Part shown: piece by piece, positions 9,950 to 41,279 of the stretch
Numbering within the stretch: position 1 is the stretch's first letter
Layout: each line of letters starts with the position of its first letter
Source of the DNA: Firmicutes bacterium ADurb.Bin193
GTDB taxonomy: Bacteria > Bacillota > Clostridia > Monoglobales > Firm-18
Reading direction: 5' to 3'
DNA length: 64,000 bases
NCBI GenBank assembly: GCA_002070105.1
Contig: MWCQ01000012.1
Coordinates: 6,754-70,753 of the forward strand
Made by a program: the position numbers and the translations under genes
Notes under the pieces: model-generated
What the model was told of the DNA's origin: nothing
The model's input: the letters and a program-made list of their open reading frames with translations, nothing else
The model's database searches: none

Positions 9950-9996
9950 AATCGTACCTCCGAATATTTATTTCTCTCGGATTTTTGTTGATTTTC

Positions 9997-17063: not shown

Positions 17064-17077
17064 AGTAATTTTCCTCC

Positions 17078-17653: not shown

Positions 17654-17666
17654 ATGATTGTCCTCC

Positions 17667-19095: not shown

Positions 19096-19240
19096 CTGAC
19101 TTTCCTCCTTCCATGTGTTGACTCTGATCGGCAAGTATCTTCAGTTTTCTTGCCAGGCGTTTGGACACAACGCTGATTGCAGTAAGGACATCAATGAGCT
19201 CTCCGTCTACAGCGCGGGTCCGGGTATCGGTTTCGTACAT
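19061..19240 (-). CDS. Hypothetical small phage protein
   Basis: ATG 19240 (MYETD) follows GAGGAGG. Overlaps the next gene by about 35 nt. Confidence 0.3.
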   Translation of the reverse strand: MYETDTRTRAVDGELIDVLTAISVVSKRLARKLKILADQSQHMEGGKSDEQNERNGCVY

Positions 19241-20501: not shown

Positions 20502-20637
20502 AAAAAATAAGTTTAACTCGATTTTTTCCTTTAACCACACCATAATTATAAGGAATAGCAATGAGAAAGTATTTGCCCCTGTTTTGCCACTGTTTTGCCA
20601 GTGTTTTTCCGGGACATGTGAAGGGAGATATGGTTTG

Positions 20638-21834
20638 ATGAACGAACTGAATATGTCATCTTATATCCAGACCATGCAGCCAGGACTTATGACGCACGAC
20701 AAGCAAGAGTCTGCAGGTGTTTTCCTTCTCAGTTCGATCAATGATCAGGAATACGTCGGACTGAATGGATACAGGACGGACAACCTTAGTTCAAAGAAAA
20801 TAAGTCGTCTGGTAAGCAGAGCCGATCATGTACCGGATGGAATCAAACAGGCTTCAACGAAGCAAGTTGTAATAGATGAGACAATCAAATACTTCAAAAA
20901 TCAGGTGTGGAAGGATCTAAACCCTCATTTGATGGATGATACTATTAATGATGTGGTAAAACTGATCAGCGTTGATCCAACCATTCCAGACAGCAAGAAA
21001 AAGAGTCTCATAGAATTCCACACATCCGGTGATGATCCACGTTTCCTTGCAGAGGCCTTTTTATACGCAGTAAACAGACCAAATAAAAAGGTAGACGATG
21101 TTGTTGAATACGAGGATGCTCCGCTATTGGCGGAAGCAAATTACGAGTGTCCTCTTTGTCATAAGAAATTAGTGGATACTGTAAAAAATCAGGCGGTGAA
21201 GCGTTATAGGATTACTCAGATCTTCCCTGATGATCTTGATGATGAATTTACTGCCATGTTCTCTGCAGCGTGCCAAGCACCGAGCAGACTGGACGTGCCG
21301 GAGAACTTAATCGCATTAGATGAAGAATGCTCTGACCGTTATCTTTTGAGCCCTACGGTGGATGAATATAAAAAGCTCCGTGAGATTAAGGATTCTATCT
21401 CACGGAACTACGCTGCAAAATCCGCTGTTAATTGTGTCCAACTTGAGGATGATATTCGTACTGTTCTGGATGCCCTGAGCCAGATTAGGGATGCATCGGA
21501 GCTTGTTCAACTGGAATATGACGCTCTTCATATAGAGGAAAAATTCAAACCGGAGAATTTCATTCTTAAGAATGAGACGCAATTGCAGGTGGTTACATAC
21601 TATAGATATATCGAAAAAGTGTTCTCTGAGTCTGATGCCGACTTTGATATAATAGCTTCAGAAATCAAGGTAAGTTCTCAAAAGCTGGAGAAGGCCGGGA
21701 TGTCGCAGGCAGAGGTCATGGCTCAATTGTCTGAGTGGATCAGGAATAAGTCAGGTCTAGGTGCGGACGGGCAACTAGCCTGTAATATTGTTGTTTCGTT
21801 TTTTATACAGAATTGTGAGGTGTTCCATAAGTGA
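20638..21834 (+). CDS. ABC-three-component (ABC-3C)-type system protein, first component
   Basis: 398 aa. ATG 20638 lies 9 nt after GGGAGA. The stop overlaps the next start (GTGA). Contains YECPLCHKKL...ITQIFP...ENLIALDEEC, which resembles a degenerate HNH-like finger. The call rests mainly on context with the 74-aa and DUF2326 genes. Confidence 0.55.
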   Translation: MNELNMSSYIQTMQPGLMTHDKQESAGVFLLSSINDQEYVGLNGYRTDNLSSKKISRLVSRADHVPDGIKQASTKQVVIDETIKYFKNQVWKDLNPHLMDDTINDVVKLISVDPTIPDSKKKSLIEFHTSGDDPRFLAEAFLYAVNRPNKKVDDVVEYEDAPLLAEANYECPLCHKKLVDTVKNQAVKRYRITQIFPDDLDDEFTAMFSAACQAPSRLDVPENLIALDEECSDRYLLSPTVDEYKKLREIKDSISRNYAAKSAVNCVQLEDDIRTVLDALSQIRDASELVQLEYDALHIEEKFKPENFILKNETQLQVVTYYRYIEKVFSESDADFDIIASEIKVSSQKLEKAGMSQAEVMAQLSEWIRNKSGLGADGQLACNIVVSFFIQNCEVFHK

Positions 21835-22055
21835 AAATTCCAAGCAAGGTGACACCATACAAAGAAAGCACTATCGCAAAATTCCCTGTTGTGCTTTCCC
21901 TGTTGCAAGAAGGTGACCTTTCTCCAACGGACTTATACAGTAAGGTGAAGGATAGTAAAATTAAGCATATAGAAGAATTCGTTGAGGTTCTGGACTGCCT
22001 TTATGCAATGAGAAAAATAGAAATTCGAGAGGAGGTTCTCTATTATGTTGGTTGA
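21831..22055 (+). CDS. ABC-3C-type middle component (small wHTH-like protein)
   Basis: 74 aa, overlapping both neighbours (4 nt and 11 nt). Size and position are as in ABC-3C triads. Confidence 0.5.
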   Translation: MKIPSKVTPYKESTIAKFPVVLSLLQEGDLSPTDLYSKVKDSKIKHIEEFVEVLDCLYAMRKIEIREEVLYYVG

Positions 22056-23724
22056 AGTGCAATGTGATAAATTTATTAGTGACGGACAGATTCGGGAGCC
22101 TATTCGGTTTCATACTGGTCTCAATACTGTACTCGGTGATAATAATGGGTCAAACTCCATCGGTAAGTCTACCTTCCTAATGATACTGGATTTTATTTTT
22201 GGTGGTTCGGATTATGTAAAAAAGTGTGTAGATGTTCAGGAAAATATAAAAGAGCACACGATTAATTTCACCTTTGAGTTTGGTGGCTATCAATACCACT
22301 TCTCAAGGAATACCATCGACTACAATAAGGTTGTTAGATGTGATGAGAAGTACAATCCCTTAATTGAAGAAAAACCTTTGAGCCTTCAGGAATATGGAGA
22401 TTTTCTATGCAAAAATTATGGGCTGTCTGCAGAGGGAATCACATGGCGCGGGGCAGTAGCCAGATTCATCCGTGTCTATAAGAGAGATACGCTAGACGAG
22501 GAGCGGCCTCTCCGGTCATCAAAGGATGAGAAAGCCAGTGATGTAATCAAACGGTATATGCAACTTTTTAATAGATATCATGCTGTAGAAGCACAGATTA
22601 ATCAGGCAACTGCCGCTGAGGATGAGAAGGAGGCCTTTCGCAAATCTTCGTTGCAATATAATCATGTTCGTGCTGCAAAGACAACTAAGGAAAAAGAAGC
22701 AAATGAAACACGAATTGCTGTGCTAGAGCAGCGAGAGAAGGAAATGGCTGAAAGTAGCAATCAGGGTCTCCTTGATCTTGATAGCCTGACGGCGCGTCGT
22801 CTTTCTGAACTGATGGAGCAACTTATCAACTATCGAAGGCAGAGAGCTCGTATTCAAACACAACTCAACTCTATCCGTCGCGATATGACGGAGCAGAAAA
22901 AAGGGTTTAAAAGAACGTTCACTGATTTAGAACGATTCTTTCCAAACGAAGAATTCCGTACTCTTGAAGAGATTGAGCACTTTCACCAGAAACTAGCGAA
23001 GATTCTAGCTGAGGAGTTTAGGGAGGCAGAAAAGGATCTATCCACTACCTATGTGCTGTTGAATAATGAGATCGTAAGGCTAAAGAATGAGATCACTGAA
23101 ATTAAGAATGTCCCTAATGTGTCTCAGGCTATATTGAAGGAATTTGCACAGATAACGACCGAACTTCATAATCTCAGAGAAGCAAATAAAAATTTTGATG
23201 AACTGGAGAGCCTAAAGAAAGTAGCTGCAGATTATGCAGAGACTCGAGATGCTGTAATCCATGACCAGTTGCTTGCTATTGAAACCACCGTTAATCAGGC
23301 GATGCGCGAAATTAGTCTTAAGATACTAAAGGATGCCACACACATGCCTCCAATATTGCGACTGGAGAAATTAAACAAATATACATTTAATACTCCGAAC
23401 GATGGAGGAACTGGAGCACAGTATCGTGGACTGATTACATTTGACCTTGCGAATATGACAGCAGGTCCCATCCCGTTTGTTATACACGATTCTGTTTTAT
23501 TGAAAAATATAGAACGAAAAGTATTTGCAGAGATAATAAAAGTCTATGAGGCGCAGAAAAGTCATGGAAAACAGGTCTTTATGGCATACGATACTCTAGA
23601 TTCATATGACGAGAAAACGCGACTGCTAATTGAGTCAAATGCAGTGTTGAGACTGTCACCGAGAGGTAATGAGCTTTTCGGATGGGCTTGGAATAAGGAG
23701 AACAAAGATGAAGCAGGCAAATAA
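22045..23724 (+). CDS. DUF2326-type ABC/SMC-like ATPase with central coiled coil
   Basis: N-terminal GLNTVLGDNNGSNSIGKSTFLMILDFIFGG (Walker A), about 240 aa of heptad-rich sequence, and C-terminal PFVIHDSVLLKNI (Walker B/D-loop-like). Confidence 0.75.
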   Translation: MLVEVQCDKFISDGQIREPIRFHTGLNTVLGDNNGSNSIGKSTFLMILDFIFGGSDYVKKCVDVQENIKEHTINFTFEFGGYQYHFSRNTIDYNKVVRCDEKYNPLIEEKPLSLQEYGDFLCKNYGLSAEGITWRGAVARFIRVYKRDTLDEERPLRSSKDEKASDVIKRYMQLFNRYHAVEAQINQATAAEDEKEAFRKSSLQYNHVRAAKTTKEKEANETRIAVLEQREKEMAESSNQGLLDLDSLTARRLSELMEQLINYRRQRARIQTQLNSIRRDMTEQKKGFKRTFTDLERFFPNEEFRTLEEIEHFHQKLAKILAEEFREAEKDLSTTYVLLNNEIVRLKNEITEIKNVPNVSQAILKEFAQITTELHNLREANKNFDELESLKKVAADYAETRDAVIHDQLLAIETTVNQAMREISLKILKDATHMPPILRLEKLNKYTFNTPNDGGTGAQYRGLITFDLANMTAGPIPFVIHDSVLLKNIERKVFAEIIKVYEAQKSHGKQVFMAYDTLDSYDEKTRLLIESNAVLRLSPRGNELFGWAWNKENKDEAGK

Positions 23725-23974
23725 AAATAAAAAAGAGCTAAGAACACAGTTTAGTTACAATCGTTTATGGAAGCTGCTGATTGACAGAAACATTAAAAAG
23801 CAGGAGCTTCAAAAAATGAGCGATGTTAGCGCTGCTTCCATTGCGAAAATGGGAAGGTGCGAAAATGTTACAACAGACGTTCTTCTTAGAATCTGCGAAG
23901 CTCTTGATTGCAGAGTAGAAGAAATAATGGAGCGCGTTCCGAACAAAGAAACTAATACCGAGAAAGTTGAGTGA
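23708..23974 (+). CDS. XRE-family HTH transcriptional regulator
   Basis: KKQELQKMSDVSAASIAKMGRCENVTTDVLLRICEALDCRVEEIME. The start overlaps the ATPase stop by 17 nt. Confidence 0.75.
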   Translation: MKQANKNKKELRTQFSYNRLWKLLIDRNIKKQELQKMSDVSAASIAKMGRCENVTTDVLLRICEALDCRVEEIMERVPNKETNTEKVE

Positions 23975-27685: not shown

Positions 27686-29170
27686 ATGGAACAGATTTAT
27701 CTTCGAGATGCACGTAAGGCTGTAGATAAGAATTATGTTGGGTTTACTCCTAATGGAAGTTCAATTAAGCCTGTTCATATAGCGGGTGGTTCACTTCGCT
27801 GTATCTTCGGATATTATAACCGAACCAAAAACATCAAGCGGATGGCATTGGTTTCTGATTCCAAAGGTAATATCCCTGCAGGCAACGAAGCAGATATAAT
27901 TTATTCTCAGTTAGCGAAAGATGAAAAGATTGAGGACAGCATTTCTGAGAATTCCATTGAGTCCATGAGGAATGTCATGCAGAGGTTGCTGTCTGTTGAT
28001 AAAGGTGTTTATGTTGTAAAAGGGCTTAAAGATGGAATGATTTCCTATTCTGCTGGGTCAAAGTATTTCCTCACAAGTAGAGCTATGTATGAGGATGCTG
28101 GTGAGTTTATGGGAAGCCTTATAAGAGCATACTGTCCAGATCTTGCAAACTATATCAGAGATCTCTTGGAATCAGGGAATGATCCGATTACATTGCTATT
28201 CGGCCCTGTTCTAGAGGCAGATATGGAAGTGTTCTCTGATCAAAATCAGCATGAAGATTTGCCTGCATTTCAGGAGTTGAATAAAAGTACTAAATGGTTT
28301 ATAAATAGCATAAGAGATGGCGGAGCGTGCTTATTGGACAATTTCCGGCATCATCCTAACCCATTGACGCAGTTAAGACAGTTCAACTTTTTCTGTATTA
28401 TTAATTTGATTCGATACATGACCCTGCTGGAGGCTTTATATTGTGGCGAAAACATTAGACCAATATTGTTGGATTTTAGTGGGAAAATCCCTAGCTTTAG
28501 TAGTGTGGCAAGAATGTCCGAGATGTCTTACACGCAAATGTATAAATCAATTAACCGCTTCTATGCATGGGGATATGCAAAATGGCTTGATGAGCAGGGA
28601 TACAGCAAAGAAGAACTGTTAAATTCTGAAACGCCTGCATATGAAAAAGGAAAAACTGTCTCAAAGGCTAGCAAGGACGAATTGGATGCGCTGTGGACTC
28701 TTGCAAAGGAACGAGCCAGTGAAGTAGATGGAGAAAGCATGTACCTTGAGTTTGGGGAGACTATGTACGATATGCTTGCGCTAGAAGCATCGTCCCACCC
28801 GGTAACATATATTAGGGCTCTTGGGACATCTGCTGGTGTTTTGTATCCCCCAGATCAACTACACCCTAATAAGCGATTTGTTATTTCTCAAGATATTCTC
28901 GAAATGCTTTTAAGAAGTTGTGTAAGCTCTGGTGAAATAATAAGCGGCATGGAAATTAGACAACGGCTGTGGGATAGATTTGGGATTATTATTGGAGGAA
29001 GCCAGTTTGAAATGCAGATGCTCCAATCAAGTGGAATGATTATGCAAATTGATGAGGATGCACTAGAAGAAAATTTCTCCTTATTTGCCGCAACTCTTGA
29101 GTCAATGGACTTTGCAGAGGTTATGGCAGACGGTATTCTACAGATTAGAATGGGAGGTGCTGAAAAATGA
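27686..29170 (+). CDS. 494-aa protein of unknown function, translationally coupled to both neighbours
   Basis: ATG 27686 lies 4 nt after the upstream stop and after GGGAGG. Its stop overlaps the next start (ATGA). No motif recognised. Confidence 0.6.
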   Translation: MEQIYLRDARKAVDKNYVGFTPNGSSIKPVHIAGGSLRCIFGYYNRTKNIKRMALVSDSKGNIPAGNEADIIYSQLAKDEKIEDSISENSIESMRNVMQRLLSVDKGVYVVKGLKDGMISYSAGSKYFLTSRAMYEDAGEFMGSLIRAYCPDLANYIRDLLESGNDPITLLFGPVLEADMEVFSDQNQHEDLPAFQELNKSTKWFINSIRDGGACLLDNFRHHPNPLTQLRQFNFFCIINLIRYMTLLEALYCGENIRPILLDFSGKIPSFSSVARMSEMSYTQMYKSINRFYAWGYAKWLDEQGYSKEELLNSETPAYEKGKTVSKASKDELDALWTLAKERASEVDGESMYLEFGETMYDMLALEASSHPVTYIRALGTSAGVLYPPDQLHPNKRFVISQDILEMLLRSCVSSGEIISGMEIRQRLWDRFGIIIGGSQFEMQMLQSSGMIMQIDEDALEENFSLFAATLESMDFAEVMADGILQIRMGGAEK

Positions 29171-32100
29171 TGGACAAGCAAGCATTAGTTGCCGAACTTC
29201 TACGGAAGCATCTTGGTTGTGTAAAAACAGGTATCATTATCAAAGGAATTGAGGGTATTAATCCCGAAAGCATTGTCAGTCAGTTGGTTGATACCAATGC
29301 TCAATTGTATACTGCCATAATTGGTTATGGCAAGGTTACCAAGAGCCATGAAGCCAATTATGAAATTACCGATTTGATTGAGAAAGCAGTCTTGTGGAGA
29401 AGTATGCCTGAATGTGCTAGACGCATTCTCGTATTTATAAAGAATGATACGGACAAGCTTCATTCCTTGGCTGAATTTGACGTTATTTCCACGAGGGATG
29501 TATCGAGATTCCTTTTAGAACAGCAATTGAAGAATGATAATAATACACCAACACATAACTTTTGGACTGCACTTAAAGATACCTCTGATTACTATACGTT
29601 CGATGCGCTATACGAATTTGTTTCGGCAGTGTCGAGAAGTGACAATTCCGCAGAAGCAATCCCAGAAAACATGTGGCGGATAAATCTGTTATCTGATTCC
29701 AAAATTCTTGGCACAAAAAGTGATCCCAAGGAGAGACTCGCTAAGAACAGAGACCTAATTTTTTCAATAGGGCAACTACGTGAGGATTCTAGAAAGAAAC
29801 TGAGTCGGTCTTTGGCGCGGTCAAAAGTGAGCGATAAAGAAAGACTCCAAAAGGCATATCATAGCCTGCAAAGTCTTTATAAATACGGCAAGCGTGAAAC
29901 ACTAAGGGATCTTGATATGGAGACAGTCCAAGAATTGTTTTCTGCATCTCAAGAATCAGATAATAAAAGAAAGAAAGCATTACCTCCTAAACCCGAGGAC
30001 CCTTCAAATATTGAGGAAACACTACCTGAGAGCACACCAATCAAGCCAAAGGAGTTAGACGTTTTAATCTCCGATGCAGTGGTATTTGGCGGTGATGAGG
30101 AATTAGAAAATATACAGGATTTACTGAAGGCATTAATAAAGCATTACGATCCTGAAACTGAAGAAAATGATGACGACATTCCTCCGATAGGCGGAATTTT
30201 TGGCGATAGAAATATTGTGTTAGAAAACCATCAAACGGATCTCAGAAAGCTAGTTGGTAAGTTTTGCAATTTGTCCGCTTGGGGCGGTCTCATGGAGACT
30301 GATGAAAGTGTTCTCAAGGATGCTATTTCTGCCGATATCACTAATGCTAAATTTTTCAATCCGGAAAGTGTAAATTCGATAATATCTTTTTCAGGCGGAA
30401 TCGACGGAAGTCAGCCTTTGTTTGATTTCATCGTTCAATTCGATGCTCAATTTGATGCAAAGGGATTGGATAACGCGGAGAGATTCACTGCGATAATATC
30501 TAATTTAAAGGAACAGAGAGCAAAGCTTTATGATTCGATTGATATGATTATGTATCATCCAGTTCTATTATTTGGAGCCTCTGAAGAAAAGAGACAGGTT
30601 CTTGTGGATTATATTCAAGCGTGGGAACGTCTTTATCATGCGTTCTGCGTTAATGAGCCCATCATGAGACAAATCAGCGCTGGAGGAACAAGTTTTATTG
30701 CTAGAGCGATTTTGCTGCTAGATGTTTTATATGTTAAGACTCCGAAGGAATGGAAAGGACTGCTCCTTCCGTTGCATCCAATTTACCTATGGCGCTTTTA
30801 TGAGGTCTTCCGTACCTTGCCCAATAAGAAGTCTACGCTTAGCGACGAAGATAAAGATGCGTTATCTGCAGTTTTATCGCAGCTTCCGCAGGTACTGAGT
30901 TTTATCATAGCAAACAGCATTGTGACTGAATCATCGGAAGATCGAATTCTCCCTTGCTCTGGAAGCATAGAGATGTTGCCTACCTTTGAAAATAAAACTA
31001 ATCGCTATTTAGGCAATGATGGCACAGAATCCATAGAAGAAATACTTACTAGGTGGGTAGGTTTTGCTCCTTATACACGAAACGAAATCAGAATTTGCTC
31101 TGTAGATGCGCCAGATTTAATTGGAATTATTCGTCAAGTTAAGTCCTTTATGGATAAAAATTCCTGCAAGCGCGTAGTATATGATGTTTATCTTACAAGA
31201 AACCAAAATGGGAATACTGAACTGTCAAAACTAGATTATGCTGGAAAGGATTACGAAATAGGCGAATATATAAAAGAAGACCGAATTTTCATAGGTATTA
31301 AAAATGTTCGTTCAGTGAATGATGTAAAATCCGCCTTGGACTTTAGGCCTGTTCATGTGGCGTTCTATTTTGATCAGTCCTCATACGCAATCGAATTTGG
31401 CCCAAACAGCCATAACCTTTATATCAATCCGCTAGTTATAACATATGATTATGACTTTGACGAGATTCAGCATAAAGGCAGCATCTTCCCTTCATCAGAA
31501 ATGGACTCCGGTCTTATTGGTGACTACCATAAGCTAATGAGATCAGCGGATATTATAACCAACAACATGAATCCGAGGACAATCTATAACGGAAATGCGG
31601 ATATGACATCTGTGGTCTCGACGATTGAGGACGGCCAGACGCAGTGGCTTGTGGTTGCAGATAGAGACACAAACAATTATCAGCCAGAAAAGGCTATTCC
31701 GATTGGTGAGATGCAATATGACAAGAGGATGGTAAATGCTTGGGCGTCAGATGAATCAAGAATCATCTCACAGTATTTAAATCTTCTTCGCGGCTATAAT
31801 TTATATCCCAAGGCTGAAACCCTTATTGATATTCTTCGACAGTTTGGCCATATTGCTTCTAATGGGCTGATTAGTATTCCAAAATTTGGGGCAGACGCCC
31901 AGGCGATCGATAACAAGAGAAAAGGTTTAATTGGGACTTTATTTGCAGCTTCTTGGTATATGAAAAAGCATCCAGAGGCTCTTGTTGCATCCTTGGATGA
32001 TGATAAGGCAAGACTTTGGCTGCAAAACAGAAAGTATGGAAATGAACGGGCCGATCTCGTAGGCTTGTACTATGATGATCAGAGCAATACACTCCATATT

Positions 32101-33915
32101 CAACCTATTGAGGTGAAAACGAGAGATGAATCTCCGGATGCCACCATAACTAAGGATGAAGTTGGATCAAAGGTATTTAATATTACTGGCCATGCTGCAG
32201 GTCAGATTGCTTCAGTGATAGAGATCTTGAGAGAAATCTTTACTACCGATGAAAATGCAGCGGATATGTTTACGTCGGCACGAAGAGAGGTCTTAAAATA
32301 CCAAATTGTATCAGAATGCTTCAGAAATGTACACAATGCAGATTGGCAAAAGCGATGGTACGATATTCTGAAAAGAGCGTTCGCGAATGGACCTAGAAAG
32401 AATATAACAATTAATGTATCAGGAATACTAATGCATATAAAGCTTAATGAGGCGTCCGGCGGCGAGCATATTGTTTGCTATAATCCCGAATTCGATGATT
32501 GTCGAATTGATTATTGGAAACTTACAGCCAGAGAAATTCAGCGAGATGTGCTGGGAGATGGTTCCCTTATTAAAGAAATGTGGACACCAGATTTTGATAC
32601 AGCGGAAGACAATGATGTGGTAGTTAATGATTCAGTTGATGCAATAATTGATAAAGATGACGCTGTTGATGATATATATGAAGAAGGAGATATTACAAGA
32701 GATATTCATCCTCCGGAAAGTATTCCATCAAGCAATTTGGCGGTAGTTACCGAACCGCGTGAGAAGAACGGTGCGCCAGTTATTTCGGGCACTCCTGTTC
32801 TGGAGACTGAAAATGGCGTTAGCAAAGAAGAGATTGAACAGTTGGTTAAGGATTTTAAGAGATCCTGTGGTGATTATCATGTTTCCTTGCGTGAATGCGA
32901 TGCAGAAAATACAGTTGTTGGGCCAAGCGTTATACGTTTAAAATTCCGTTTGGGTCGAGGACAAGCATTGCAGGGGCTTTCCAGCCATCTAGAGGATATT
33001 GGAAGAGAGATGAAGCGTACCGGCGTGATTATCCAACAGGTGCCTAATTCTGATGAATTACTTCTAGATGTACCACGGCTTCAACGCGAAAAGGTTTTAT
33101 TTAGGGATGTCATATCTTCTTTGCCTAGGGTAACGTCTCCTGAGCAACTGTATTTCCCCCTTGGAAGAACACCTAATGGTGTAGATTTAATTGAGGATCT
33201 TGGCCAGATGCCACATATGCTGGTTGGTGGTAGCACTGGATCTGGAAAATCTGTATTCCTCTTTACAATGCTTGCTGCAATGTTGATGACTCATCCGCGA
33301 AAGGAAGATCTTCAGTTGATTTTATCCTCGTCAAAGCTGGAGGATTTCATACATTTTGAAGGATTACCCCATCTTTATTCGGGGAGTGTTATTTCTGATG
33401 CTATCGAAGCAACGAAAGTGATCAAGGAGGTTATTTTCGAAGAGTCTGAACGCAGAGGGAAACTACTTGCAGAGGCTAGAGTCGCAAACATTATCGAGTA
33501 TAACAAGATAGCAGAGGAGAAACTCGCTCCAATCGTAGTAGTGATTGATGAGTTTGCTGATTTGGCAGATCAATTAGAAAATAAAAAAGAACAAAACGCT
33601 TTCTATAAACCTGTTCAACGCATAGCACAGGCTGGACGTAGTAGAGGGATACATCTTGTTATCTGCACACAACGACCTGAAGCAAAACTTGTACCTTCAA
33701 CTACAAAAGCACAATTAAACGGCCGTGTTGCTTTGCGTGTTAATGATGGCATTTCATCTCGCATGATTATCGAGACACCGGATGCTCAGTACCTTCAGAA
33801 GCACGGAGATATGATTTACAAGAATGGTGATGTGGTTGAACGTGCCCAAGGTTATTTGATTGAAATCGAGGAACTAGATAAAATCGTAAGCTCAGTAATT
33901 AATGGTACATTCTAA
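29167..33915 (+). CDS. 1582-aa protein: unknown N-terminal region, PD-(D/E)xK-like nuclease motif, acidic linker, C-terminal FtsK/SpoIIIE alpha-beta ATPase motor
   Basis: ERADLVGLYYDDQSNTLHIQPIEVKTR (D963, E982, K984). VGPSVIRLKFRLGRGQALQGL...VIIQQVPN (FtsK alpha-like). MLVGGSTGSGKSVFL (Walker A, K1361). IVVVIDEFADL (Walker B). GIHLVICTQRP. NGRVALRVNDGISSRMI. Confidence 0.8.
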   Translation: MMDKQALVAELLRKHLGCVKTGIIIKGIEGINPESIVSQLVDTNAQLYTAIIGYGKVTKSHEANYEITDLIEKAVLWRSMPECARRILVFIKNDTDKLHSLAEFDVISTRDVSRFLLEQQLKNDNNTPTHNFWTALKDTSDYYTFDALYEFVSAVSRSDNSAEAIPENMWRINLLSDSKILGTKSDPKERLAKNRDLIFSIGQLREDSRKKLSRSLARSKVSDKERLQKAYHSLQSLYKYGKRETLRDLDMETVQELFSASQESDNKRKKALPPKPEDPSNIEETLPESTPIKPKELDVLISDAVVFGGDEELENIQDLLKALIKHYDPETEENDDDIPPIGGIFGDRNIVLENHQTDLRKLVGKFCNLSAWGGLMETDESVLKDAISADITNAKFFNPESVNSIISFSGGIDGSQPLFDFIVQFDAQFDAKGLDNAERFTAIISNLKEQRAKLYDSIDMIMYHPVLLFGASEEKRQVLVDYIQAWERLYHAFCVNEPIMRQISAGGTSFIARAILLLDVLYVKTPKEWKGLLLPLHPIYLWRFYEVFRTLPNKKSTLSDEDKDALSAVLSQLPQVLSFIIANSIVTESSEDRILPCSGSIEMLPTFENKTNRYLGNDGTESIEEILTRWVGFAPYTRNEIRICSVDAPDLIGIIRQVKSFMDKNSCKRVVYDVYLTRNQNGNTELSKLDYAGKDYEIGEYIKEDRIFIGIKNVRSVNDVKSALDFRPVHVAFYFDQSSYAIEFGPNSHNLYINPLVITYDYDFDEIQHKGSIFPSSEMDSGLIGDYHKLMRSADIITNNMNPRTIYNGNADMTSVVSTIEDGQTQWLVVADRDTNNYQPEKAIPIGEMQYDKRMVNAWASDESRIISQYLNLLRGYNLYPKAETLIDILRQFGHIASNGLISIPKFGADAQAIDNKRKGLIGTLFAASWYMKKHPEALVASLDDDKARLWLQNRKYGNERADLVGLYYDDQSNTLHIQPIEVKTRDESPDATITKDEVGSKVFNITGHAAGQIASVIEILREIFTTDENAADMFTSARREVLKYQIVSECFRNVHNADWQKRWYDILKRAFANGPRKNITINVSGILMHIKLNEASGGEHIVCYNPEFDDCRIDYWKLTAREIQRDVLGDGSLIKEMWTPDFDTAEDNDVVVNDSVDAIIDKDDAVDDIYEEGDITRDIHPPESIPSSNLAVVTEPREKNGAPVISGTPVLETENGVSKEEIEQLVKDFKRSCGDYHVSLRECDAENTVVGPSVIRLKFRLGRGQALQGLSSHLEDIGREMKRTGVIIQQVPNSDELLLDVPRLQREKVLFRDVISSLPRVTSPEQLYFPLGRTPNGVDLIEDLGQMPHMLVGGSTGSGKSVFLFTMLAAMLMTHPRKEDLQLILSSSKLEDFIHFEGLPHLYSGSVISDAIEATKVIKEVIFEESERRGKLLAEARVANIIEYNKIAEEKLAPIVVVIDEFADLADQLENKKEQNAFYKPVQRIAQAGRSRGIHLVICTQRPEAKLVPSTTKAQLNGRVALRVNDGISSRMIIETPDAQYLQKHGDMIYKNGDVVERAQGYLIEIEELDKIVSSVINGTF

Positions 33916-33932: not shown

Positions 33933-34628
33933 ATGCAGGCGACTTCTATGTATGGAGACTTAATTGTTGGCACTTTTATAAAAGAAGAAAAGAATCGATT
34001 TATTTGCCGTGTTAGGGTCTCTGGAATAGAAACCGTCTGCTATATTCCTTCATCCTGTCGACTCAGCAACTTTATTGACCTTGAAGGAAGACAGGTCTTA
34101 CTAAAACCAAACGCATCCAGAAAGACACGCACGGAATACTCTGTTTTTGCAGTTAAATACAAACGAGGATTTATTCCTGTTAATCTTTCTTTAGCTAATC
34201 GAGTTGTTGAAGAACAAATTAAAAACCGCAGATTTTCATTCTTAGGAAACCGAAAAAATGTAATTCGAGAGGCTATGATAGATGGATATAAAGCGGATTT
34301 GTATATCAGTGACACACAGACAATAATTGAAATTAAAAGCATTCTTTCATTTGAAAAAGAAACTGTATTTCCTACTGTATATTCAGAACGTGCACTAAAT
34401 CAGTTAATAAAAATTAAAGAACTATTACTACAGGGATATACGGTACATTATATGTTGATTTCATTAAACCCTGTTGTTAAGCAAATCACATTAAATCAAA
34501 ATATGAGTGATTTTTATGAGCATTTTCTTGAGTGTATAGCTTTGGGGATGCAGTGCTGCGGGTATAGCATTTATTTACAAAGTGGCATACCAACCACGCA
34601 TTCAAAAACTAACGTATATTGGTGCTGA
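33933..34628 (+). CDS. sfsA: SfsA-like nuclease (N-terminal OB-like region plus PD-(D/E)xK core)
   Basis: GTFIKEEKNRFICRVRVSGIETVCYIPSSCRL..., GYKADLYISDTQTIIEIKS (D...E-I-K), and size (231 aa) match the SfsA family. AAGGAG lies 7 nt upstream of the ATG. Confidence 0.7.
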   Translation: MQATSMYGDLIVGTFIKEEKNRFICRVRVSGIETVCYIPSSCRLSNFIDLEGRQVLLKPNASRKTRTEYSVFAVKYKRGFIPVNLSLANRVVEEQIKNRRFSFLGNRKNVIREAMIDGYKADLYISDTQTIIEIKSILSFEKETVFPTVYSERALNQLIKIKELLLQGYTVHYMLISLNPVVKQITLNQNMSDFYEHFLECIALGMQCCGYSIYLQSGIPTTHSKTNVYWC

Positions 34629-34734
34629 TCCAGTTGATGTTTATTCATCTAAACTTAATACGCAGAACAAATATACGAAAGTCCCCGAACTTCTTGATTT
34701 GAGGCCATTCTTACAACTGAAAGGAGATTATAAT

Positions 34735-35793
34735 ATGTTAGATAGTACGATTACTTTATTTTCCTCTGATAGCAGACCTCAGTATGTAAAAGACGTTTTT
34801 AATGTATTAGCTCTACCCCATGGGAGTATGTACAGATTTAGGTATAAAGAGAAATACATACATAGCGATGTAATTGAACACTTAGGCAGTAGTAAAATTA
34901 AGGGTACTATTGCGTTAATAGCGTTCAGGACAAAACTGGGTATAGATAAAAATGAGCAGATTTTAATCCCAGTGCGTTGGGCCTCTATAACAAATATTAG
35001 GAAAAGTTCTGATTACTACTTAATTGATTTTACAGTTTTAGGTTATGCCGTCTTCAATAAAGAATTTGAAAATTGTCGAAATTATGAAGATATAAATTCG
35101 CTGGCAAAAAAGTATTTTTCCTCACAGGATAAGATTGACGCTTTTGTTATAAAAAACACGCCAAATATTGTCATCCCATTTGCAAATACAAAGCCAAATA
35201 AAATAAATGAAGATGATGAGAAAGATCGCTGGTTGAAAGTAACGGAACGTCTCAGTATCTATCCAAAGTTTGAAAAATGCTATTACTTTAAGGCATCAAT
35301 AATAAAAAATGGGCTTGCCAAGCTTTTTAACCCTAATTCTGTAATGGAAGGCGGAAGAACAAACATCAACATTGAATACAATAACTTTTGTGATATTTCA
35401 GACTCTGAAATAAATGTTGAGTACGATGAATGCTTATTAATACCCTCCAGAGATAAAAAAACCAAGATTGAATGCAGATATGATTCTACTATTTATGCAT
35501 TTCAAGCGAAAGGGATTTTATCAGATACACCTACGCAAATAACATTAAACTGTTATAGCTATAAAGACACTGAAAATAATCAAGACATTGAAACGATGAT
35601 AAAGATTCCTTTAATAATAAAAAGGAATCGTTGTTATTTGTTTGCTCGAGTCCTTTTATCGCTCGTTGGCGCAATAGGTATCGGTTTACCAGGAGTTTTA
35701 TCTGAATCTACCCCCTCCAAATGTAAAGTTGTTTTATTTGTTATAGGTTCAATATTCATTGCAATTAGCTGGTTGATACCGTATAAGGAGTAG
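34735..35793 (+). CDS. Hypothetical protein with two C-terminal transmembrane helices
   Basis: ATG 34735 lies 8 nt after AGGAG (the ORF track start 34582 would overlap sfsA). C-terminal CYLFARVLLSLVGAIGIGLPGVL and VVLFVIGSIFIAISWLIPY. Confidence 0.5.
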   Translation: MLDSTITLFSSDSRPQYVKDVFNVLALPHGSMYRFRYKEKYIHSDVIEHLGSSKIKGTIALIAFRTKLGIDKNEQILIPVRWASITNIRKSSDYYLIDFTVLGYAVFNKEFENCRNYEDINSLAKKYFSSQDKIDAFVIKNTPNIVIPFANTKPNKINEDDEKDRWLKVTERLSIYPKFEKCYYFKASIIKNGLAKLFNPNSVMEGGRTNINIEYNNFCDISDSEINVEYDECLLIPSRDKKTKIECRYDSTIYAFQAKGILSDTPTQITLNCYSYKDTENNQDIETMIKIPLIIKRNRCYLFARVLLSLVGAIGIGLPGVLSESTPSKCKVVLFVIGSIFIAISWLIPYKE

Positions 35794-35795
35794 CT

Positions 35796-36164
35796 ATGAT
35801 ATATAAATTTCTGAAAATAAAAAAAGCTATCCAGAAATCTTGGGGAGTTGATACAGCATATAAGGATGATATCCCCAATTGGTCAACCGATAATCCAGCA
35901 GCTGGGCAGTGTGCTGTTACTGCATTGGTAATTCATGACTTTTTTGGTGGCCAAATATTCAGCGGAGTGTCACAAGATGGTGTGGTTCATTATTGGAACT
36001 ACGTACATGGCATAAAAATTGACTTAACTCGAAGTCAATTTAAAGAGACTAAAAAATTCTCTGATATTATTGAATGGGCATCGAATGATTTACTGAATAC
36101 CGGTAATGTCAAGGAACGCTATGAGATTCTTAGAAATCGAGTAGAAATGTATATGCAAAAATAA
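35796..36164 (+). CDS. Small conserved protein, YunG-like (uncertain)
   Basis: 122 aa, starting 2 nt after the previous stop. W..DTAY...WSTDNPAAGQCAVTALVIHDFFGG resembles my memory of YunG-family proteins. Confidence 0.4.
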   Translation: MIYKFLKIKKAIQKSWGVDTAYKDDIPNWSTDNPAAGQCAVTALVIHDFFGGQIFSGVSQDGVVHYWNYVHGIKIDLTRSQFKETKKFSDIIEWASNDLLNTGNVKERYEILRNRVEMYMQK

Positions 36165-36517: not shown

Positions 36518-36631
36518 GTCAGGTTAGATGTCAGTACTCGGTGAGTGTACAGGTTAGATGTCAGCCTTCGCGAGTGGTCAGGTCAGATGTTTTTTCGGAA
36601 GTTTTTGAGGTTGTGTGAACAGGTTGGATGT
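36518..36631 (+). repeat. Four phased direct repeats immediately upstream of the PRTase-like gene RBS (candidate operator or iteron array)
   Basis: GGTCAGGTTAGATGTCAG (36518), GTACAGGTTAGATGTCAG (36548), GGTCAGGTCAGATGT (36578), GAACAGGTTGGATGT (36618). Spacing is 30, 30 and 40 nt. Confidence 0.75.
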
Positions 36632-36650
36632 AAAAAGGGAGGAAAGCATA

Positions 36651-37541
36651 TTGGATACAAAAGTTGTAAAAGATATTTGTAGGGAGAAATGGGCAGCAGG
36701 GTTTGATGAGGATACAAAAACAAAGAAAGCATTAGCTCAATTTGATGTTTGGCTTGCTCAAATACCTGATAAATACAAAGAACTGAGTCTTGTTTTAATT
36801 CAAAATCTTGAATATTTTCCCCGAGACTTAATAAACAAGTTGCTGATGGAATTACATAAGAAGCTGATTAAACTGCCAGCCATTAGTGATGATAATACAA
36901 TATATGCATATATCAAGTCAAAAGACGGAAAAACGAATAGTTCGGATGAGTATTGGACAATGTACAAGTTATTGAATGATGTTAATCGTGAGTTTTGCTA
37001 TGAGAATATAAATGCCATAAATAATTGGCAATGGGCATATGTGAAAAATATTGTGTTTATTGACGATTTCAGTGGAACTGGAAAAAGTATAATCAAGGAG
37101 TTGAAAAAGAATGAAAGTCGTTATATAGGAAAGAATATATATTTTATTACAATTTGTGTGATGGAAGATGCAATTCAAAAAATCAAGAATTATTCTAAAT
37201 TAAAAAAAATGAATATAGTACCAGTCTTTTGTTTTATGCATAAGAAAACTTTTGCACGAGAATTATTTGAAAACAATGAAGACGCCAAAGACTCATTTAT
37301 CGCCTTGACAACATATTTAAAAATACCAGAGTGGGAATATCCATTAGGATTTGAAAAATCGGAGGCGCTTGTTGCTTTTCATAATAACACTCCAAACAAC
37401 ACGCTTTCGATTATCAGATGTGACACCAAAGAATATAAGTCTTTATTTCCACGCAGGCATGAGAATAAACCTTTTTGGGATAAAATGAAATCACAAAGCA
37501 AAGGCAGAAAAGTTGCAAACTATAAAAATAAATTTGTGTAA
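36651..37541 (+). CDS. Phosphoribosyltransferase (PRTase)-like retron accessory protein
   Basis: NIVFIDDFSGTGKSII resembles the PRPP-binding loop of type I PRTases. TTG start at 36651 lies 8 nt after GGGAGG (ORF-track start 36615 is inside the repeat array). Confidence 0.55.
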   Translation: MDTKVVKDICREKWAAGFDEDTKTKKALAQFDVWLAQIPDKYKELSLVLIQNLEYFPRDLINKLLMELHKKLIKLPAISDDNTIYAYIKSKDGKTNSSDEYWTMYKLLNDVNREFCYENINAINNWQWAYVKNIVFIDDFSGTGKSIIKELKKNESRYIGKNIYFITICVMEDAIQKIKNYSKLKKMNIVPVFCFMHKKTFARELFENNEDAKDSFIALTTYLKIPEWEYPLGFEKSEALVAFHNNTPNNTLSIIRCDTKEYKSLFPRRHENKPFWDKMKSQSKGRKVANYKNKFV

Positions 37542-37554
37542 AGGGGATGAATCT

Positions 37555-37878
37555 GTGGTTAATTATCAGAAACAACTAGCACTGCTCTATTTTAAAACGT
37601 CTGGTAATGAATATGACTTATTAGAACTTATGCAACTCTTGGGGTTGCGGCAAAATCAACTGGATTTGATTTTATCAGAACTAAAAAAAGATGGTTTTAT
37701 TTGTATCAGTAATTATGAAATCACAATTACTGAAAAAGGAATCCTACATCTTGCTGCAAATAATGTCTCCAGCAATGCAGATGATGGAATACAATATCCG
37801 TTAAAGAATATCGTGAGTGAAAACTTGATGCCGTTGAACGAACCATATGTACCCAAGAAGTTTTTAACTAAAATATAA
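37555..37878 (+). CDS. Small winged-helix DNA-binding protein (retron accessory)
   Basis: DLLELMQLLGLRQNQLDLILSELKKDGFICISNYEITITEKG. GTG 37555 follows AAAGGGGA; the alternative ATG 37513 overlaps the upstream gene. Confidence 0.5.
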   Translation: MVNYQKQLALLYFKTSGNEYDLLELMQLLGLRQNQLDLILSELKKDGFICISNYEITITEKGILHLAANNVSSNADDGIQYPLKNIVSENLMPLNEPYVPKKFLTKI

Positions 37879-37884
37879 AACGAT

Positions 37885-38092
37885 TAATATATGCATGGAA
37901 TAGAAGGCGAATGACAAGTTGTCATTCTTAGCAAAAATGTTTCTTTGTCCCATAGTATGATTCTTTCAAAGAAATAATCATACTATGAAACCATTGGAAC
38001 TGCAATGGTTTCACGCATCCGCACTTTATCTTTATTTGCAATAAAGATAAAGTATGTTTCAATATCAGAATTAGTATTTCATGCAAATATTA
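37885..38092 (+). ncRNA. Retron msr-msd-like ncRNA, unit 1
   Basis: Flanking inverted repeat TGCATGGAATA (37892-37902) / TATTTCATGCA (38075-38085, one G-U), extendable with AT pairs. Conserved TAGAAGGCGAA. Hairpins at 37909-37927, 37951-37987, 37987-38012 and 38023-38053. Conserved CAGAATTAGTATT. Confidence 0.55.
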
Positions 38093-38093
38093 T

Positions 38094-38273
38094 AAGTGCG
38101 CTATATAGAAGGCGAAAAGCAAGTTGCTTTTCACAGTTGCAAAGTTTCTTTGTATTACATCTTTTGAATTCAAAGACTTCAAAAGATGTAACCAATTGGA
38201 ATTGCAATTGGTTACATCAATATTACTAGTAATATTGATGTATGTTAATAACAGAATTAGTATTAGCGCACTT
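38094..38273 (+). ncRNA. Retron msr-msd-like ncRNA, unit 2 (directly upstream of the RT)
   Basis: Perfect 10-nt inverted repeat AAGTGCGCTA (38094-38103) / TAGCGCACTT (38264-38273), in a2/a1 fashion. TAGAAGGCGAA. Hairpins at 38114-38132, 38155-38191, 38192-38211 and 38213-38242. CAGAATTAGTATT. The RT RBS and ATG follow at 38280 and 38291. Confidence 0.65.
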
Positions 38274-38290
38274 TCATTTAGGAGAACGCC

Positions 38291-39307
38291 ATGGAAAATT
38301 ATATTGATAGGCTTAAAATATTATTAAGAGAGTCTGGATACGGCAAGCATTATTCAGAAAAATGTATCGAATATGCAAGACGATTAATCGAAAATAATCT
38401 ACCAGTGATATTCGATATAGACCATTTTTCGTTGGTCAGTGGTGCGCCCAAAGAACTGATTTTAAAAATACTGTTTGCAGATTCAAATTATTATTCGCTG
38501 GCTCAAATACCTAAAAAATCCGGTGGATTCAGAGACTTGCATATTCCGTCGGTAGAATTAAAGTATTTACAATGTTGGATTTTAGATAATATTCTTATTA
38601 AAGTGCAAATTTCACCATATGCGACAGGTTTTTGCAATAATAAATCAATCATTGATAATGCAAAAATGCACATTGGTAGCGAATGCATTTTGAATATGGA
38701 TATTAAAGATTTCTTCCCCTCTATTAAATTCACAATGGTATTTAGAATTTTTGCATATTACGGATACACAAAAGAGCTTTCCTTTGTATTTGCAAAGTTA
38801 TGCACATATGAAGATTCTTTGCCTCAGGGCTCTCCTGCGAGTCCGTGTATTTCCAATATAGTAAGCTTGAGAATTGATAAAAGGCTTTCGCTATTAGCCG
38901 AGAAATACAACGCTTGTTATTCGAGATATGCAGATGATATAACTTTTTCCGGAAATGGCGGAATCAAAAAGTTGATAGAAATCACCGCCAAAATATTAAC
39001 AGAAGAAGGGTTTTCTTTAAACACAAAAAAAACTAGAATGCAATTTTCGCACCAGCGCCAAGAAGTTACTGGATTGATCATTAATGGTGGCACTATTAGA
39101 GTGAATAAGAAATATAAGCGTGATTTATATCAAATATGCTATTATTGTAAAAAATTTGGTGTTGATAGCCATCTACAAAAAATCAAATGCAACAAAAGTT
39201 TTTATAAAGAGCATTTATATGGAAAAGCATATTTTGTGAACATGGTAGAACCTGAGGAAGGTAAAAAACTTTTTAAAATACTAAATGAAATTCAATGGGA
39301 TTATTGA
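38291..39307 (+). CDS. Retron-type reverse transcriptase
   Basis: GGFRDLHIP, NAKMH (retron NAxxH), NMDIKDFFPSI, LPQGSPASP, YSRYADDITFS (YADD), QEVTGLIIN (VTG). 338 aa. Confidence 0.9.
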   Translation: MENYIDRLKILLRESGYGKHYSEKCIEYARRLIENNLPVIFDIDHFSLVSGAPKELILKILFADSNYYSLAQIPKKSGGFRDLHIPSVELKYLQCWILDNILIKVQISPYATGFCNNKSIIDNAKMHIGSECILNMDIKDFFPSIKFTMVFRIFAYYGYTKELSFVFAKLCTYEDSLPQGSPASPCISNIVSLRIDKRLSLLAEKYNACYSRYADDITFSGNGGIKKLIEITAKILTEEGFSLNTKKTRMQFSHQRQEVTGLIINGGTIRVNKKYKRDLYQICYYCKKFGVDSHLQKIKCNKSFYKEHLYGKAYFVNMVEPEEGKKLFKILNEIQWDY

Positions 39308-39316
39308 GGTGATAAT

Positions 39317-39892
39317 ATGGAATTGGAAAAGGCAAATAAGATAATCAATGATTTAGAGTTGCTTATCAATGGCATTGATCCATCTACTAATCATAAATTT
39401 GAGGTTGATACAATATTAAATAACAAATATAACAACCTTCTTTTAAGAGAAGTTCATAAAATGCTTTCCGAATACATGAAAGTTTGTGATATTAATCATG
39501 CTTTTGACAAACGAAGAAAACAATTTTTTCACATTGATGATTTACGGAAGAAAGAAATACCAATTTCAGAAGACGCAATTCCAATTAGTACTTTTGCATA
39601 TACACTTAATGATTTTATTGACACCACAACGATGAAAAAAGTAAAAGCATCTGAGATAACCAAGTGGCTAATGATTGAGGGTTACTTAGAAGAAACAGAA
39701 CACGATGACGGTAAGGTATTCAAAATTCTTACAGCTAAAGCTAGTGAAATTGGTATGATAAAGAAAACAAAAAAGAATTCTTACGGAAGAACTTATGATG
39801 TAAACTTATACAGTGCTAAGGCACAGAAGTTCATTGTTGATAATTTGGATACTATCTCACACTTCATTAAAACACACTTTACAAATGCATAA
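39317..39892 (+). CDS. Hypothetical 191-aa protein downstream of the RT (possible DNA-binding accessory)
   Basis: Starts 9 nt after the RT stop. The C-terminal half (ASEITKWLMIEGYLEE...DGKVFKILTAKASEIGM...YGRTYDVNLYSAKAQKFIVDNL) looks like a small helical DNA-binding module, but I cannot name the family. Confidence 0.45.
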   Translation: MELEKANKIINDLELLINGIDPSTNHKFEVDTILNNKYNNLLLREVHKMLSEYMKVCDINHAFDKRRKQFFHIDDLRKKEIPISEDAIPISTFAYTLNDFIDTTTMKKVKASEITKWLMIEGYLEETEHDDGKVFKILTAKASEIGMIKKTKKNSYGRTYDVNLYSAKAQKFIVDNLDTISHFIKTHFTNA

Positions 39893-40836: not shown

Positions 40837-41279
40837 AAGGCATTATATTTTTTTGGAGCAACTGTCAACCATCATTGACACTTTAAGAAATAAAAAAAAT
40901 GGGAAAATTTGAAAAATGACTTGACAAAACAATAAATATGTGATATAAATAGATATAGTTTAGCACTCAATCGTTATAAGGGCTGATAATTATAAGTAAA
41001 TAAACGGCAATAATAATGTACGGCGCTAAATCCATACAATAAGAATCGGGAAAACCTATTTTATAGAGTTAACAAAAAATTTAAAGAAGAAAATTTCTTT
41101 ATTACATCTGTTTTTAACTTAAATTATTACTTCGGTAGAGTGTTATATAATCTATAAATATTAAAGCACTGTATGTTAAGTATGGCGCTTTTTCTGTTAT
41201 TTTTCATAAGCACGCTATTTTCATGCTGCGTTTTCGACATTAAGCAGAAATTAAAAAATATCAAAACGAGGTGAAAAGA

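Follow-up and report, generated by a model that had tools for sequence, protein, structure and literature searches.

We analyzed a window of 64,000 nucleotides (nt) from Firmicutes bacterium ADurb.Bin193 (contig MWCQ01000012.1, positions 6,754 to 70,753 of the forward strand) that includes an open reading frame (ORF) at 29167 to 33915 (+), which opens with ATG and encodes a protein of 1,582 amino acids (aa), here termed H. We conclude that H is probably the translocase-nuclease effector subunit of a defense cassette of the DndFGH/SspFGH class, comprising genes for a helix-turn-helix (HTH) protein, a DruA::F fusion, G, H, and SfsA. A first-pass annotation of this DNA had described H as a pump tethered to a nuclease, an idea supported by the motor, the invariant triad, and the flexible tether between them that are detailed below; it had overlooked that H is one subunit of a conserved multigene cassette, in which its gene is the final large one. 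The pump-plus-nuclease design is the published model for DndH (NAR 2024, PMC10853773) and SspH (mBio 2021, PMC8092258), and because it is already known from these proteins, H itself is unsurprising. What is new is a cassette in which F, G, and H are coupled to DruA, with or without SfsA, and which has no modification genes in cis, is seemingly modification independent, and lacks the pair of beta-sandwich domains. H fits the DndH-type architecture in its succession of a methylase-like module, a restriction endonuclease (REase), and an FtsK alpha-beta motor, together with a DptF-like partner that is fused to DUF4338.

The FtsK alpha-beta motor that had been placed at the C terminus of H was recovered in searches of Pfam (PF01580, FtsK_SpoIIIE; aa 1314 to 1504; E = 3.5e-30; 105.5 bits against a gathering cutoff of 24), NCBIfam (FtsK, PRK10263; E = 2e-39, beginning at aa 1224), and the PDB (FtsK, 2ius; E = 2.5e-40, beginning at aa 1221), and a profile of the family reached E = 4.6e-66 against the last of these. 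As the 2ius match begins at aa 1221, the alpha domain is part of the motor. Both the Walker A motif (GSTGSGKS, aa 1355, nt 33229 to 33252) and the Walker B motif (VVVIDE, aa 1457, nt 33535 to 33552) are intact, and a TQRP sensor motif lies downstream of the latter at aa 1501. The chain stops 79 aa past TQRP, leaving no space for a gamma domain, and no transmembrane (TM) helix was predicted in H (Kyte-Doolittle maximum of 1.58 over 19-residue windows; threshold, 1.6); the earlier description of a soluble protein with neither N-terminal TM helices nor a gamma domain thus holds. The strongly acidic linker that it reported was also recovered, with 21 D+E against 5 K+R across aa 1140 to 1220, including the stretch DFDTAEDND...EEGD at aa 1142 to 1175. 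AlphaFold assigned this linker a predicted local distance difference test score (pLDDT) of <50 (model residues 253 to 314), and the region is unconserved in a 41-sequence alignment of the family.

To collect relatives of H, we used aa 1 to 1200 as a HMMER query against 1.84 billion cluster representatives, omitting the motor because FtsK matches would otherwise dominate. This recovered 357 relatives at E ≤ 1e-3, of which 72 are full length and 22 to 68% identical to H; an alignment-based homolog search gave one abundant gut-Firmicute clade (69 to 83% identity) and no added diversity. The nuclease motif noted in the first pass consists of RADLVGL at aa 961 and IQPIEVKT at aa 978, both of which are present, though with a spacer of 10 residues rather than 13, and they supply D963 (nt 32053 to 32055), E982 (nt 32110 to 32112), and K984 (nt 32116 to 32118). 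The conservation check proposed for these three residues gave a clear outcome: each is invariant in all 73 sequences of a MAFFT alignment of the diverged full-length relatives and the query, and in 32 of 32 sequences of a further alignment. They also belong to the just 18 invariant columns of the 41-sequence alignment, where mean column identity is 26% and D944, W951, Q1013, and R1039 of the same domain are likewise invariant. An AlphaFold model of aa 901 to 1230 has a pLDDT of >90 across aa 911 to 1130 and presents a helix, a strand, two long consecutive strands, and helices (an alpha-beta-beta-beta-alpha core), in which D963 starts one strand and E982 and K984 end the next, as in the PD-(D/E)xK arrangement. 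When the nuclease core was aligned with that of DptH by hhalign (59%, E = 9e-5, 47 columns spanning the ExK strand and the next helix), IEVKT paired with LEVKT and AVDQ with AVEQ. The alignments and the model support the prediction of a nuclease domain of the PD-(D/E)xK type at aa 911 to 1130, whose catalytic triad is invariant.

No Pfam family matched the N-terminal ~950 aa of H, as the first-pass annotation had said; the region is nevertheless conserved across more than 350 cluster representatives, with R78, G373, R451, W542, H730, D736, P755, and R854 invariant or nearly so. The AlphaFold model of aa 1 to 930 (mean pLDDT, 85.8) resolves a five-stranded alpha/beta domain (aa 1 to 125), long helical regions (aa 127 to 330 and 418 to 517), and an alpha/beta module (aa ~520 to 900). 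The first of these has a pLDDT of 82 to 94, with DSSP strands at 22 to 26, 47 to 52, 65 to 68, 87 to 91, and 105 to 107; aa 35 to 211 show weak similarity to NCBIfam MAD8 (E = 1.5e-4). This domain may correspond to the DNA-binding domain of DndH, which is helicase-like and inactive. The third module, with invariant W542, H730, D736, P755, and R854, is Rossmann-like: the top Foldseek matches of the N-terminal model were class I S-adenosylmethionine (SAM) methyltransferases (probability of 0.9 to 0.98, E = 2.7e-3 or weaker), namely, MidA (5zu0; E = 2.7e-3), 4g67 (COG1565), MnmC2 (3vyw), 2f8l (lmo1582), and M.BseCI (7qw6), none of them at E ≤ 1e-3. A reading of the H sequence for motifs found neither the glycine-rich SAM loop nor an (N/D)PPY motif, and the methylase-like module is therefore probably inactive. 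It aligns collinearly with DptH (aa 516 to 909 against 640 to 1045; hhalign, 357 columns, E = 1.4e-3, probability of 17.7%), pairing TPLHPL with TPFHPL. In DndH, the published order is an inactive methylase, an REase, and a HerA/FtsK motor (PMC10853773).

The partners of H point to the same class of systems. In the DruA::F fusion, the N-terminal ~650 aa are a DruA/DUF4338 module (PADLOC DruA, E = 8.6e-116, aa 54 to 637; Pfam DruA, PF14236, E = 9.6e-33), and the C-terminal ~545 aa form a P-loop NTPase of the SspF/DptF kind whose Walker A motif reads GNPGDGKT (PADLOC SspF, E = 3.7e-20, aa 699 to 934). The F family aligned with DptF at 96.7% in hhalign (E = 4e-10) across 237 columns that take in the GDGK(S/T) Walker A motif. 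DndF has been described as a sensor resembling P-loop kinases that is occasionally fused at its N terminus to other domains, including a GNAT domain annotated as DUF4338, and a GNAT fold has been proposed for DruA (PMC10853773). The G gene, which has GGGAGG in front of its ATG at 27686, encodes a protein with homologs of 494 to 497 aa, and its C terminus shows weak, collinear similarity to NCBIfam MAD7 (E = 1e-3). The ATG of H overlaps the stop codon of the gene upstream (ATGA) and is preceded by GGAGG, which suggests translational coupling. The SfsA protein was identified by Pfam (SfsA, E = 5e-12; SfsA_N, E = 2e-9) and NCBIfam (sfsA, E = 7.5e-18). At the other end of the cassette, the true start of the HTH gene is probably ~20 to 28 codons past 23669; at least 14 other loci have a homolog of its product immediately upstream of DruA, some of them with an H only 23 to 25% identical to that of the window, and a further HTH_26 gene occupies the equivalent place in one locus (L001 of our census, described below). 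A scan for promoters and terminators gave counts at or below the shuffled expectation and leaves the operon boundaries undefined.

For profile comparisons with canonical systems, we used the dptFGH operons on plasmids of Massilia (L085) and Aliivibrio (L086, beside dndBCDE), which yield two sequences per profile. The Massilia sp. H6 operon (2188 to 10122) lacks any dnd modification gene within 9 kb and is itself a case of DndFGH decoupled from DndABCDE. A whole-protein hhalign run of H against DptH reported the motor only (97.9%, E = 5e-13, 235 columns), and region-limited alignments were used for the remainder; these are weak, in part because the DptH profile has two sequences. The family profile also matched the structure of DptH over the motor (7es4; E = 2e-9). 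The PADLOC SspH model (PDLC02804) covers aa 910 to 1570 of H at profile positions 908 to 1554 of 1561 (E = 2.4e-65), a collinear match that marks the nuclease-linker-motor part as the only recognizably similar one. The comparison with DptH that the first-pass annotation suggested was the right lead: by hhalign and the curated models, H is a distant relative of DptH and SspH and not an equivalog.

We then considered the gene neighborhoods of the family in a local jackhmmer census of 84 related loci (80 from a species-level genome collection, three metagenomic contexts, and one haloarchaeal plasmid), viewed over ±10 kb. Partners were counted on the 77 loci, the window included, with at least 5.5 kb upstream. 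F is present in 77/77 loci and G, between F and H, in 75/77; DruA occurs in 76/77, fused to F in 47 and as a separate gene for a protein of 660 to 750 aa in 29; and SfsA adjoins the cassette in 49/77, mostly downstream of H but upstream of DruA in Paenibacillus/Cohnella. In Candidatus Frackibacter sp. WG13 (L046), the copy that heads the cassette is joined by another DruA-like gene (15925 to 17973; 683 aa) right behind SfsA. Among the hosts are Firmicutes, Chloroflexi, Acidobacteria, Planctomycetes, Bacteroides, Treponema, Actinobacteria, a gammaproteobacterium, Myxococcales, and haloarchaea; named carriers are Anaerotruncus colihominis DSM 17241 (NZ_CP102255.1) and Muricomes intestini DSM 29489. 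On the haloarchaeal plasmid pAArc-CO of Halalkaliarchaeum (L004, 6541 to 16371), separate genes encode DUF4338, F, G, and an "FtsK" protein, and this four-gene cassette recurs in further haloarchaeal plasmids or chromosomes (L049, L052, and L076 to L078), where its products are annotated as hypothetical or FtsK. The identity of 24 to 26% between haloarchaeal H and that of the window over 96% of the length points to interdomain spread. Across the 84 loci, the only recurring partners are DruA, F, G, and SfsA, and any other neighbor family occurs in 14 loci or fewer, in a Pfam/PADLOC census that covered 122 of 418 neighbor clusters, all of the recurrent ones included. The commonest of the others are an HTH regulator, a tyrosine integrase (12 loci), and an ABC-3C pair; the remainder vary (type IV REase, PbeA-like helicases, SoFic, WYL, AriA, one DruE, and one type III methyltransferase). 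The cassette resides in defense islands and among mobile-element cargo.

Within this family, the motor itself is exchanged. Among the C-terminal ATPases of the 72 representatives and the query, 36 are of the FtsK type, 28 are of the HerA type (27 matching the C terminus of the PADLOC DndH models and one mad8-like), seven are RuvB-like, and two are unclassified. The RuvB-like AAA+ module, found in representative P0174 and six more (e.g., L075, 8655 to 13283), matched nearly the whole NCBIfam RuvB profile (E = 2.2e-26). Two representatives (P0126 and P0127) have a scaffold 42 to 44% identical to that of the window H but carry a different motor. A published account describing HerA/FtsK motor "capture" in DndH, which reports that the DndH clade with a motor derived from cellular FtsK carries FtsK-alpha, mentions no RuvB type (PMC10853773). 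That the exchange reaches RuvB-like AAA+ ATPases argues that the sole requirement is a hexameric translocase of double-stranded DNA (dsDNA).

The main alternative of the three that we weighed is that the cassette is a genuine phosphorothioate (PT)-dependent SspFGH or DndFGH, with sspABCD or dndABCDE elsewhere in the genome, such that PT marks inhibit H on host DNA and unmarked invading DNA is cut. The closest profile matches are indeed to SspF and SspH, and our views took in 64 kb of the source genome and, around each related locus, ±10 kb. Moreover, SspFGH attacks DNA that lacks PT and is toxic to the host when its modification partner is absent (PMC8092258), from which a protective mark would be expected. 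However, an SGGKDS PP-loop ORF of the DndC/SspD kind was not found within ±10 kb of any of the 84 loci by a regular-expression search that recovered the canonical DndC as a control; no modification enzyme recurs among the inspected neighbor clusters; and the scanned ORFs of the window include no dnd or ssp modification gene. (A regular expression for methyltransferase motifs among the neighbors was discarded as too strict, having missed the MTase_III that PADLOC found.) DndFGH is, in addition, commonly decoupled from DndABCDE (PMC10853773), and the constant partner in our loci is DruA rather than a PT gene. We therefore regard PT dependence as unlikely.

We consider it very improbable that H is instead a DNA transfer or coupling ATPase of a conjugative or other mobile element, i.e., a TraB/TcpA-like FtsK homolog that pumps the DNA of the element. 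Conjugative elements do use FtsK-type motors, H shows weak matches to plasmid TraB (E = 1.2e-7) and to a "DNA translocase coupling protein" in the PDB (6o1w; E = 2e-19), and a tyrosine integrase is present in the 12 loci mentioned above. Nevertheless, a transfer-gene neighborhood, for which the first-pass annotation had advised looking, is not conserved across the 84 loci, where the conserved partners are DruA, F, G, and SfsA alone; in one clade only (L002/L003), the cassette lies as cargo beside genes for PrgI, a VirB4-like ATPase, and a CHAP hydrolase. Neither the lack of a TM anchor nor the invariant nuclease triad fits a coupling protein, and HerA- or RuvB-type ATPases can take the place of the motor with the remainder of the protein retained. 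The neighbors are mostly other defense systems, and the N-terminal 1,200 aa found no match in 50,697 phage records. Finally, a paralog of FtsK/SpoIIIE acting in chromosome segregation or sporulation, as the public annotation "DNA translocase FtsK" of H at NCBI and on plasmids would have it and as the proximity of the motor, alpha domain included, to cellular FtsK might suggest, can be set aside in view of the missing TM and gamma (KOPS-reading) domains, a score of 135 bits against the 1,566-bit cutoff of the equivalog model of cellular FtsK (PRK10263), the location in a low-GC island, the patchy distribution extending to archaeal plasmids, and an N-terminal extension of 1,200 residues that carries a nuclease triad.

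Several observations weigh against assigning H to the DndFGH/SspFGH class. The N-terminal 900 aa of H are unmatched by the PADLOC SspH model, and neither the NCBIfam DptH model (TIGR03237) nor the PADLOC DndH models match H at E ≤ 0.01. The pair of tandem beta-sandwich domains that follows the N-terminal helicase-like/HTH region of DndH (PMC10853773) is not seen in the confident model of H, in which DSSP shows mainly helices at aa 127 to 330 and 418 to 517 and nothing beyond short strands at 335 to 420. G has zero Pfam or PADLOC matches, the SspG models included, and no detectable similarity to DptG, a triple winged HTH (wHTH) protein (hhalign, 0.5%, E = 0.11, 84 columns). Foldseek searches of the PDB with the nuclease-domain model returned nothing at E ≤ 0.001 (best E = 0.04), although the weak, nonsignificant top matches include McrC, HamA, SduA, and HinP1I, all PD-(D/E)xK nucleases. 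On the mapping of the triad to a nuclease fold that the first-pass annotation had called for, the model gives the expected topology and residue placement at high pLDDT; we claim no fold match, basing the assignment on topology and motif placement. The reported toxicity of SspFGH in the absence of modification implies that a stand-alone cassette needs some other control logic. The locus sample was gathered with one N-terminal peptide pattern and consists mostly of gut Firmicutes, with some near duplicates, and the defense role and the activities of the H subfamily are predictions from sequence and models. We still favor the identification of H as a translocase-nuclease effector. The further proposal that HTH, DruA, F, G, and H, with or without SfsA, constitute a self-contained, modification-independent defense system distinct from SspFGH and DndFGH is one that we put forward tentatively, as a serious possibility that may well fail.

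Features of the cassette and of its H subunit (window coordinates)
Feature	Position	Strand	Basis or remark
Cro/C1-type HTH protein, putative transcriptional regulator	23669..23974	+	Pfam HTH_26, E = 7e-18
DruA::F fusion, 1,196 aa	24091..27681	+	PADLOC, Pfam, hhalign
G subunit, 494 aa	27686..29170	+	Position of DptG/SspG; ORF listing extends the start to 27590
H subunit, 1,582 aa	29167..33915	+	N-terminal sensor/scaffold region, predicted nuclease domain, linker, FtsK motor
H aa 1-125, N-terminal alpha/beta domain with invariant R78	29167..29541	+	AlphaFold/DSSP
H aa 516-909, alpha/beta module of Rossmann-like form, similar to class I SAM methyltransferases	30712..31893	+	
H aa 911-1130, predicted PD-(D/E)xK-type nuclease domain	31897..32556	+	Invariant triad, AlphaFold model
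H aa 1140-1215, disordered linker joining nuclease and motor, acidic and with proline	32584..32811	+	
H aa 1221-1582, FtsK alpha + beta motor	32827..33912	+	Pfam, NCBIfam, and PDB matches
SfsA-type nuclease (OB domain + RE domain)	33933..34628	+	Begins 18 nt past the H stop codon

The cassette lies in a low-GC island (20000 to 44000; GC of 0.31 to 0.42, the left flank having 0.47 to 0.51) whose GC skew is positive and which holds at least three stacked defense modules, namely, ABC-3C, the DruA-F-G-H-SfsA cassette, and a retron-like module. The ABC-3C conflict system (20584 to 23724, +), directly upstream of the cassette, encodes a 416-aa CTD11-effector protein and a 559-aa DUF2326/AAA_15 ABC ATPase. 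Such a pair also precedes the cassette in at least nine other loci (L006, L007, L012, L014, L015, L017, L024, L031, and L035), an association that may reflect cotransfer rather than a functional link. Behind SfsA (34582 to 36164, +) are genes for a ~350-aa protein that belongs to no family (403 aa from GTG as listed) and a YunG-family protein. This pair also follows SfsA in L005 (70 and 89% identity) and L056 (30 and 57%), and its retention in the latter, whose H is only ~25% identical, indicates that it may be a recurrent add-on. The retron-like module (36615 to 39892, +) comprises a PRTase-CE protein (PADLOC PRTase_III-A, E = 2e-65), a small wHTH-PRTase-associated ORF (37513 to 37878), a reverse transcriptase (38291 to 39307), and a 191-aa ORF of no family; its GC of 0.31 to 0.34 is the lowest in the window. 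An Rfam scan of the window gave no matches, so that the module is without a detected noncoding RNA.

Farther out, the window begins with a phage- or mobile-element-like replication and antirestriction block (1 to 19200, −), right behind which the defense island starts. The block encodes an Amidoligase_2 protein, a 731-aa C5 cytosine methylase, a ParB-N6/N4 methylase fusion, SAM synthetase, an SNF2 helicase, a D5-type primase-helicase, a DUF7768 protein, a family A DNA polymerase, a DUF2800 PD-(D/E)XK protein, and an Enc34-type single-stranded DNA-binding protein. At the edge of the low-GC island (41271 to 43762, +), a 620-aa nucleotidyltransferase/class I/II aminotransferase fusion is followed by a CDP-alcohol phosphatidyltransferase; these genes may function in surface or teichoic acid modification and appear unrelated to the cassette. 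Housekeeping genes return at ~43.9 kb.

In the mechanism that we propose for the cassette, the FtsK module of H would assemble as a hexameric ring on dsDNA and translocate it with ATP, as FtsK structures suggest, and the tethered nuclease domains would nick or cleave the DNA as it moves past the ring, in keeping with the nickase and translocase activities ascribed to the DndFGH complex (PMC11662687) and with SspFGH, which needs all three of its genes to confer phage resistance and damages non-PT DNA (PMC8092258). By analogy with published DndFGH and SspFGH work, G and the N-terminal scaffold of H would recognize DNA, while the P-loop domain of F and the DruA module might gate the activity as a sensor or regulator and direct it to invading DNA; SfsA would probably serve as a second, accessory nuclease. 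Discrimination of self from nonself most likely proceeds without a cis-encoded PT system.

The labels "DNA translocase FtsK" and "hypothetical" on hundreds of relatives hide a widespread defense cassette that is abundant in gut Firmicutes. The near constancy of DruA (76/77) ties an uncharacterized Druantia component to restriction machines of the Dnd/Ssp class, and the absence of modification genes in cis sharpens the question of how an FGH module avoids self-damage. If the cassette is a self-contained system, DruA would be indispensable to a translocase-nuclease as its sensor or regulator, the scaffold and nuclease of H could be driven by any ring-shaped dsDNA translocase (FtsK, HerA, or RuvB-like), and the Druantia and Dnd/Ssp restriction modules would be mechanistically linked; such a system could then be used to ask how invader and host DNAs are told apart without a mark. 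The triad D963/E982/K984 and the Walker motifs are immediate mutational targets.

Among known systems, cellular FtsK/SpoIIIE shares with H the alpha + beta motor, both Walker motifs (A and B), TQRP, and an expected hexameric dsDNA pump; unlike it, H has no membrane or gamma domain, has an additional 1,200 N-terminal residues with a nuclease, and is island borne and horizontally distributed. The likeness to MAD7 and MAD8 of the MADS system is weak but collinear (the G C terminus and H aa 35 to 211, respectively), and the H motor reaches E = 2.6e-19 against PADLOC mad8; all of the scores are far under the curated cutoffs, however, and a methyltransferase is not conserved in the cassette, so that we treat MADS as a lead only. 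The haloarchaeal PT-linked PbeABCD was weighed because full-length relatives of H sit on haloarchaeal plasmids, and it was rejected: PbeA to PbeD comprise one helicase, one SMC-like protein, and a pair of small proteins, and neither FtsK nor DUF4338 is among them. With Druantia type I (DruABCDE), the cassette shares the DruA module that forms the N-terminal 650 aa of DruA::F, and it differs in that DruA is wired to an F-G-H translocase-nuclease module rather than to the DruE helicase. PADLOC found no DruB to DruE match among the nine ORFs of the island between 20.6 and 37.5 kb, a Pfam-only search found no DruE-like helicase in the rest of the window, and DruE appeared in just one of the 122 neighbor clusters, in a single locus and on the opposite strand.

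SspFGH of Vibrio anguillarum (PMC8092258), like the cassette, encodes in succession a Walker A ATPase, a protein in the middle position, and one of ~1,560 aa with an FtsK-like end. In contrast to that system, sspBCD does not accompany the cassette in the window or in the 84 related loci, F is fused to or preceded by DruA/DUF4338 in nearly every locus, and SfsA is frequent, neither of which is reported for the Vibrio system. DndFGH, for its part, resembles the cassette in having a P-loop F, a middle G, and an H with a long scaffold, a methylase-like module, an REase, and a HerA/FtsK motor; in the window H, the methylase-like module and the REase are predicted, and the motor is of the FtsK type with FtsK-alpha. 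The kinship extends to the homology of F with DptF, the shared (I/L)EVKT and AV(D/E)Q motifs, the collinear prenuclease module, and the exchange of motors. Against this, H is ~1,580 rather than ~1,700 aa long and its model has no beta-sandwich pair, G is not detectably related to DptG, RuvB-like motors occur in the cassette family, and DruA, an occasional N-terminal add-on in DndFGH, is near obligate in the cassette, be it fused or separate. SspFGH is thus the closest known system by sequence and DndFGH the closest by architecture, and the cassette is the equivalog of neither.

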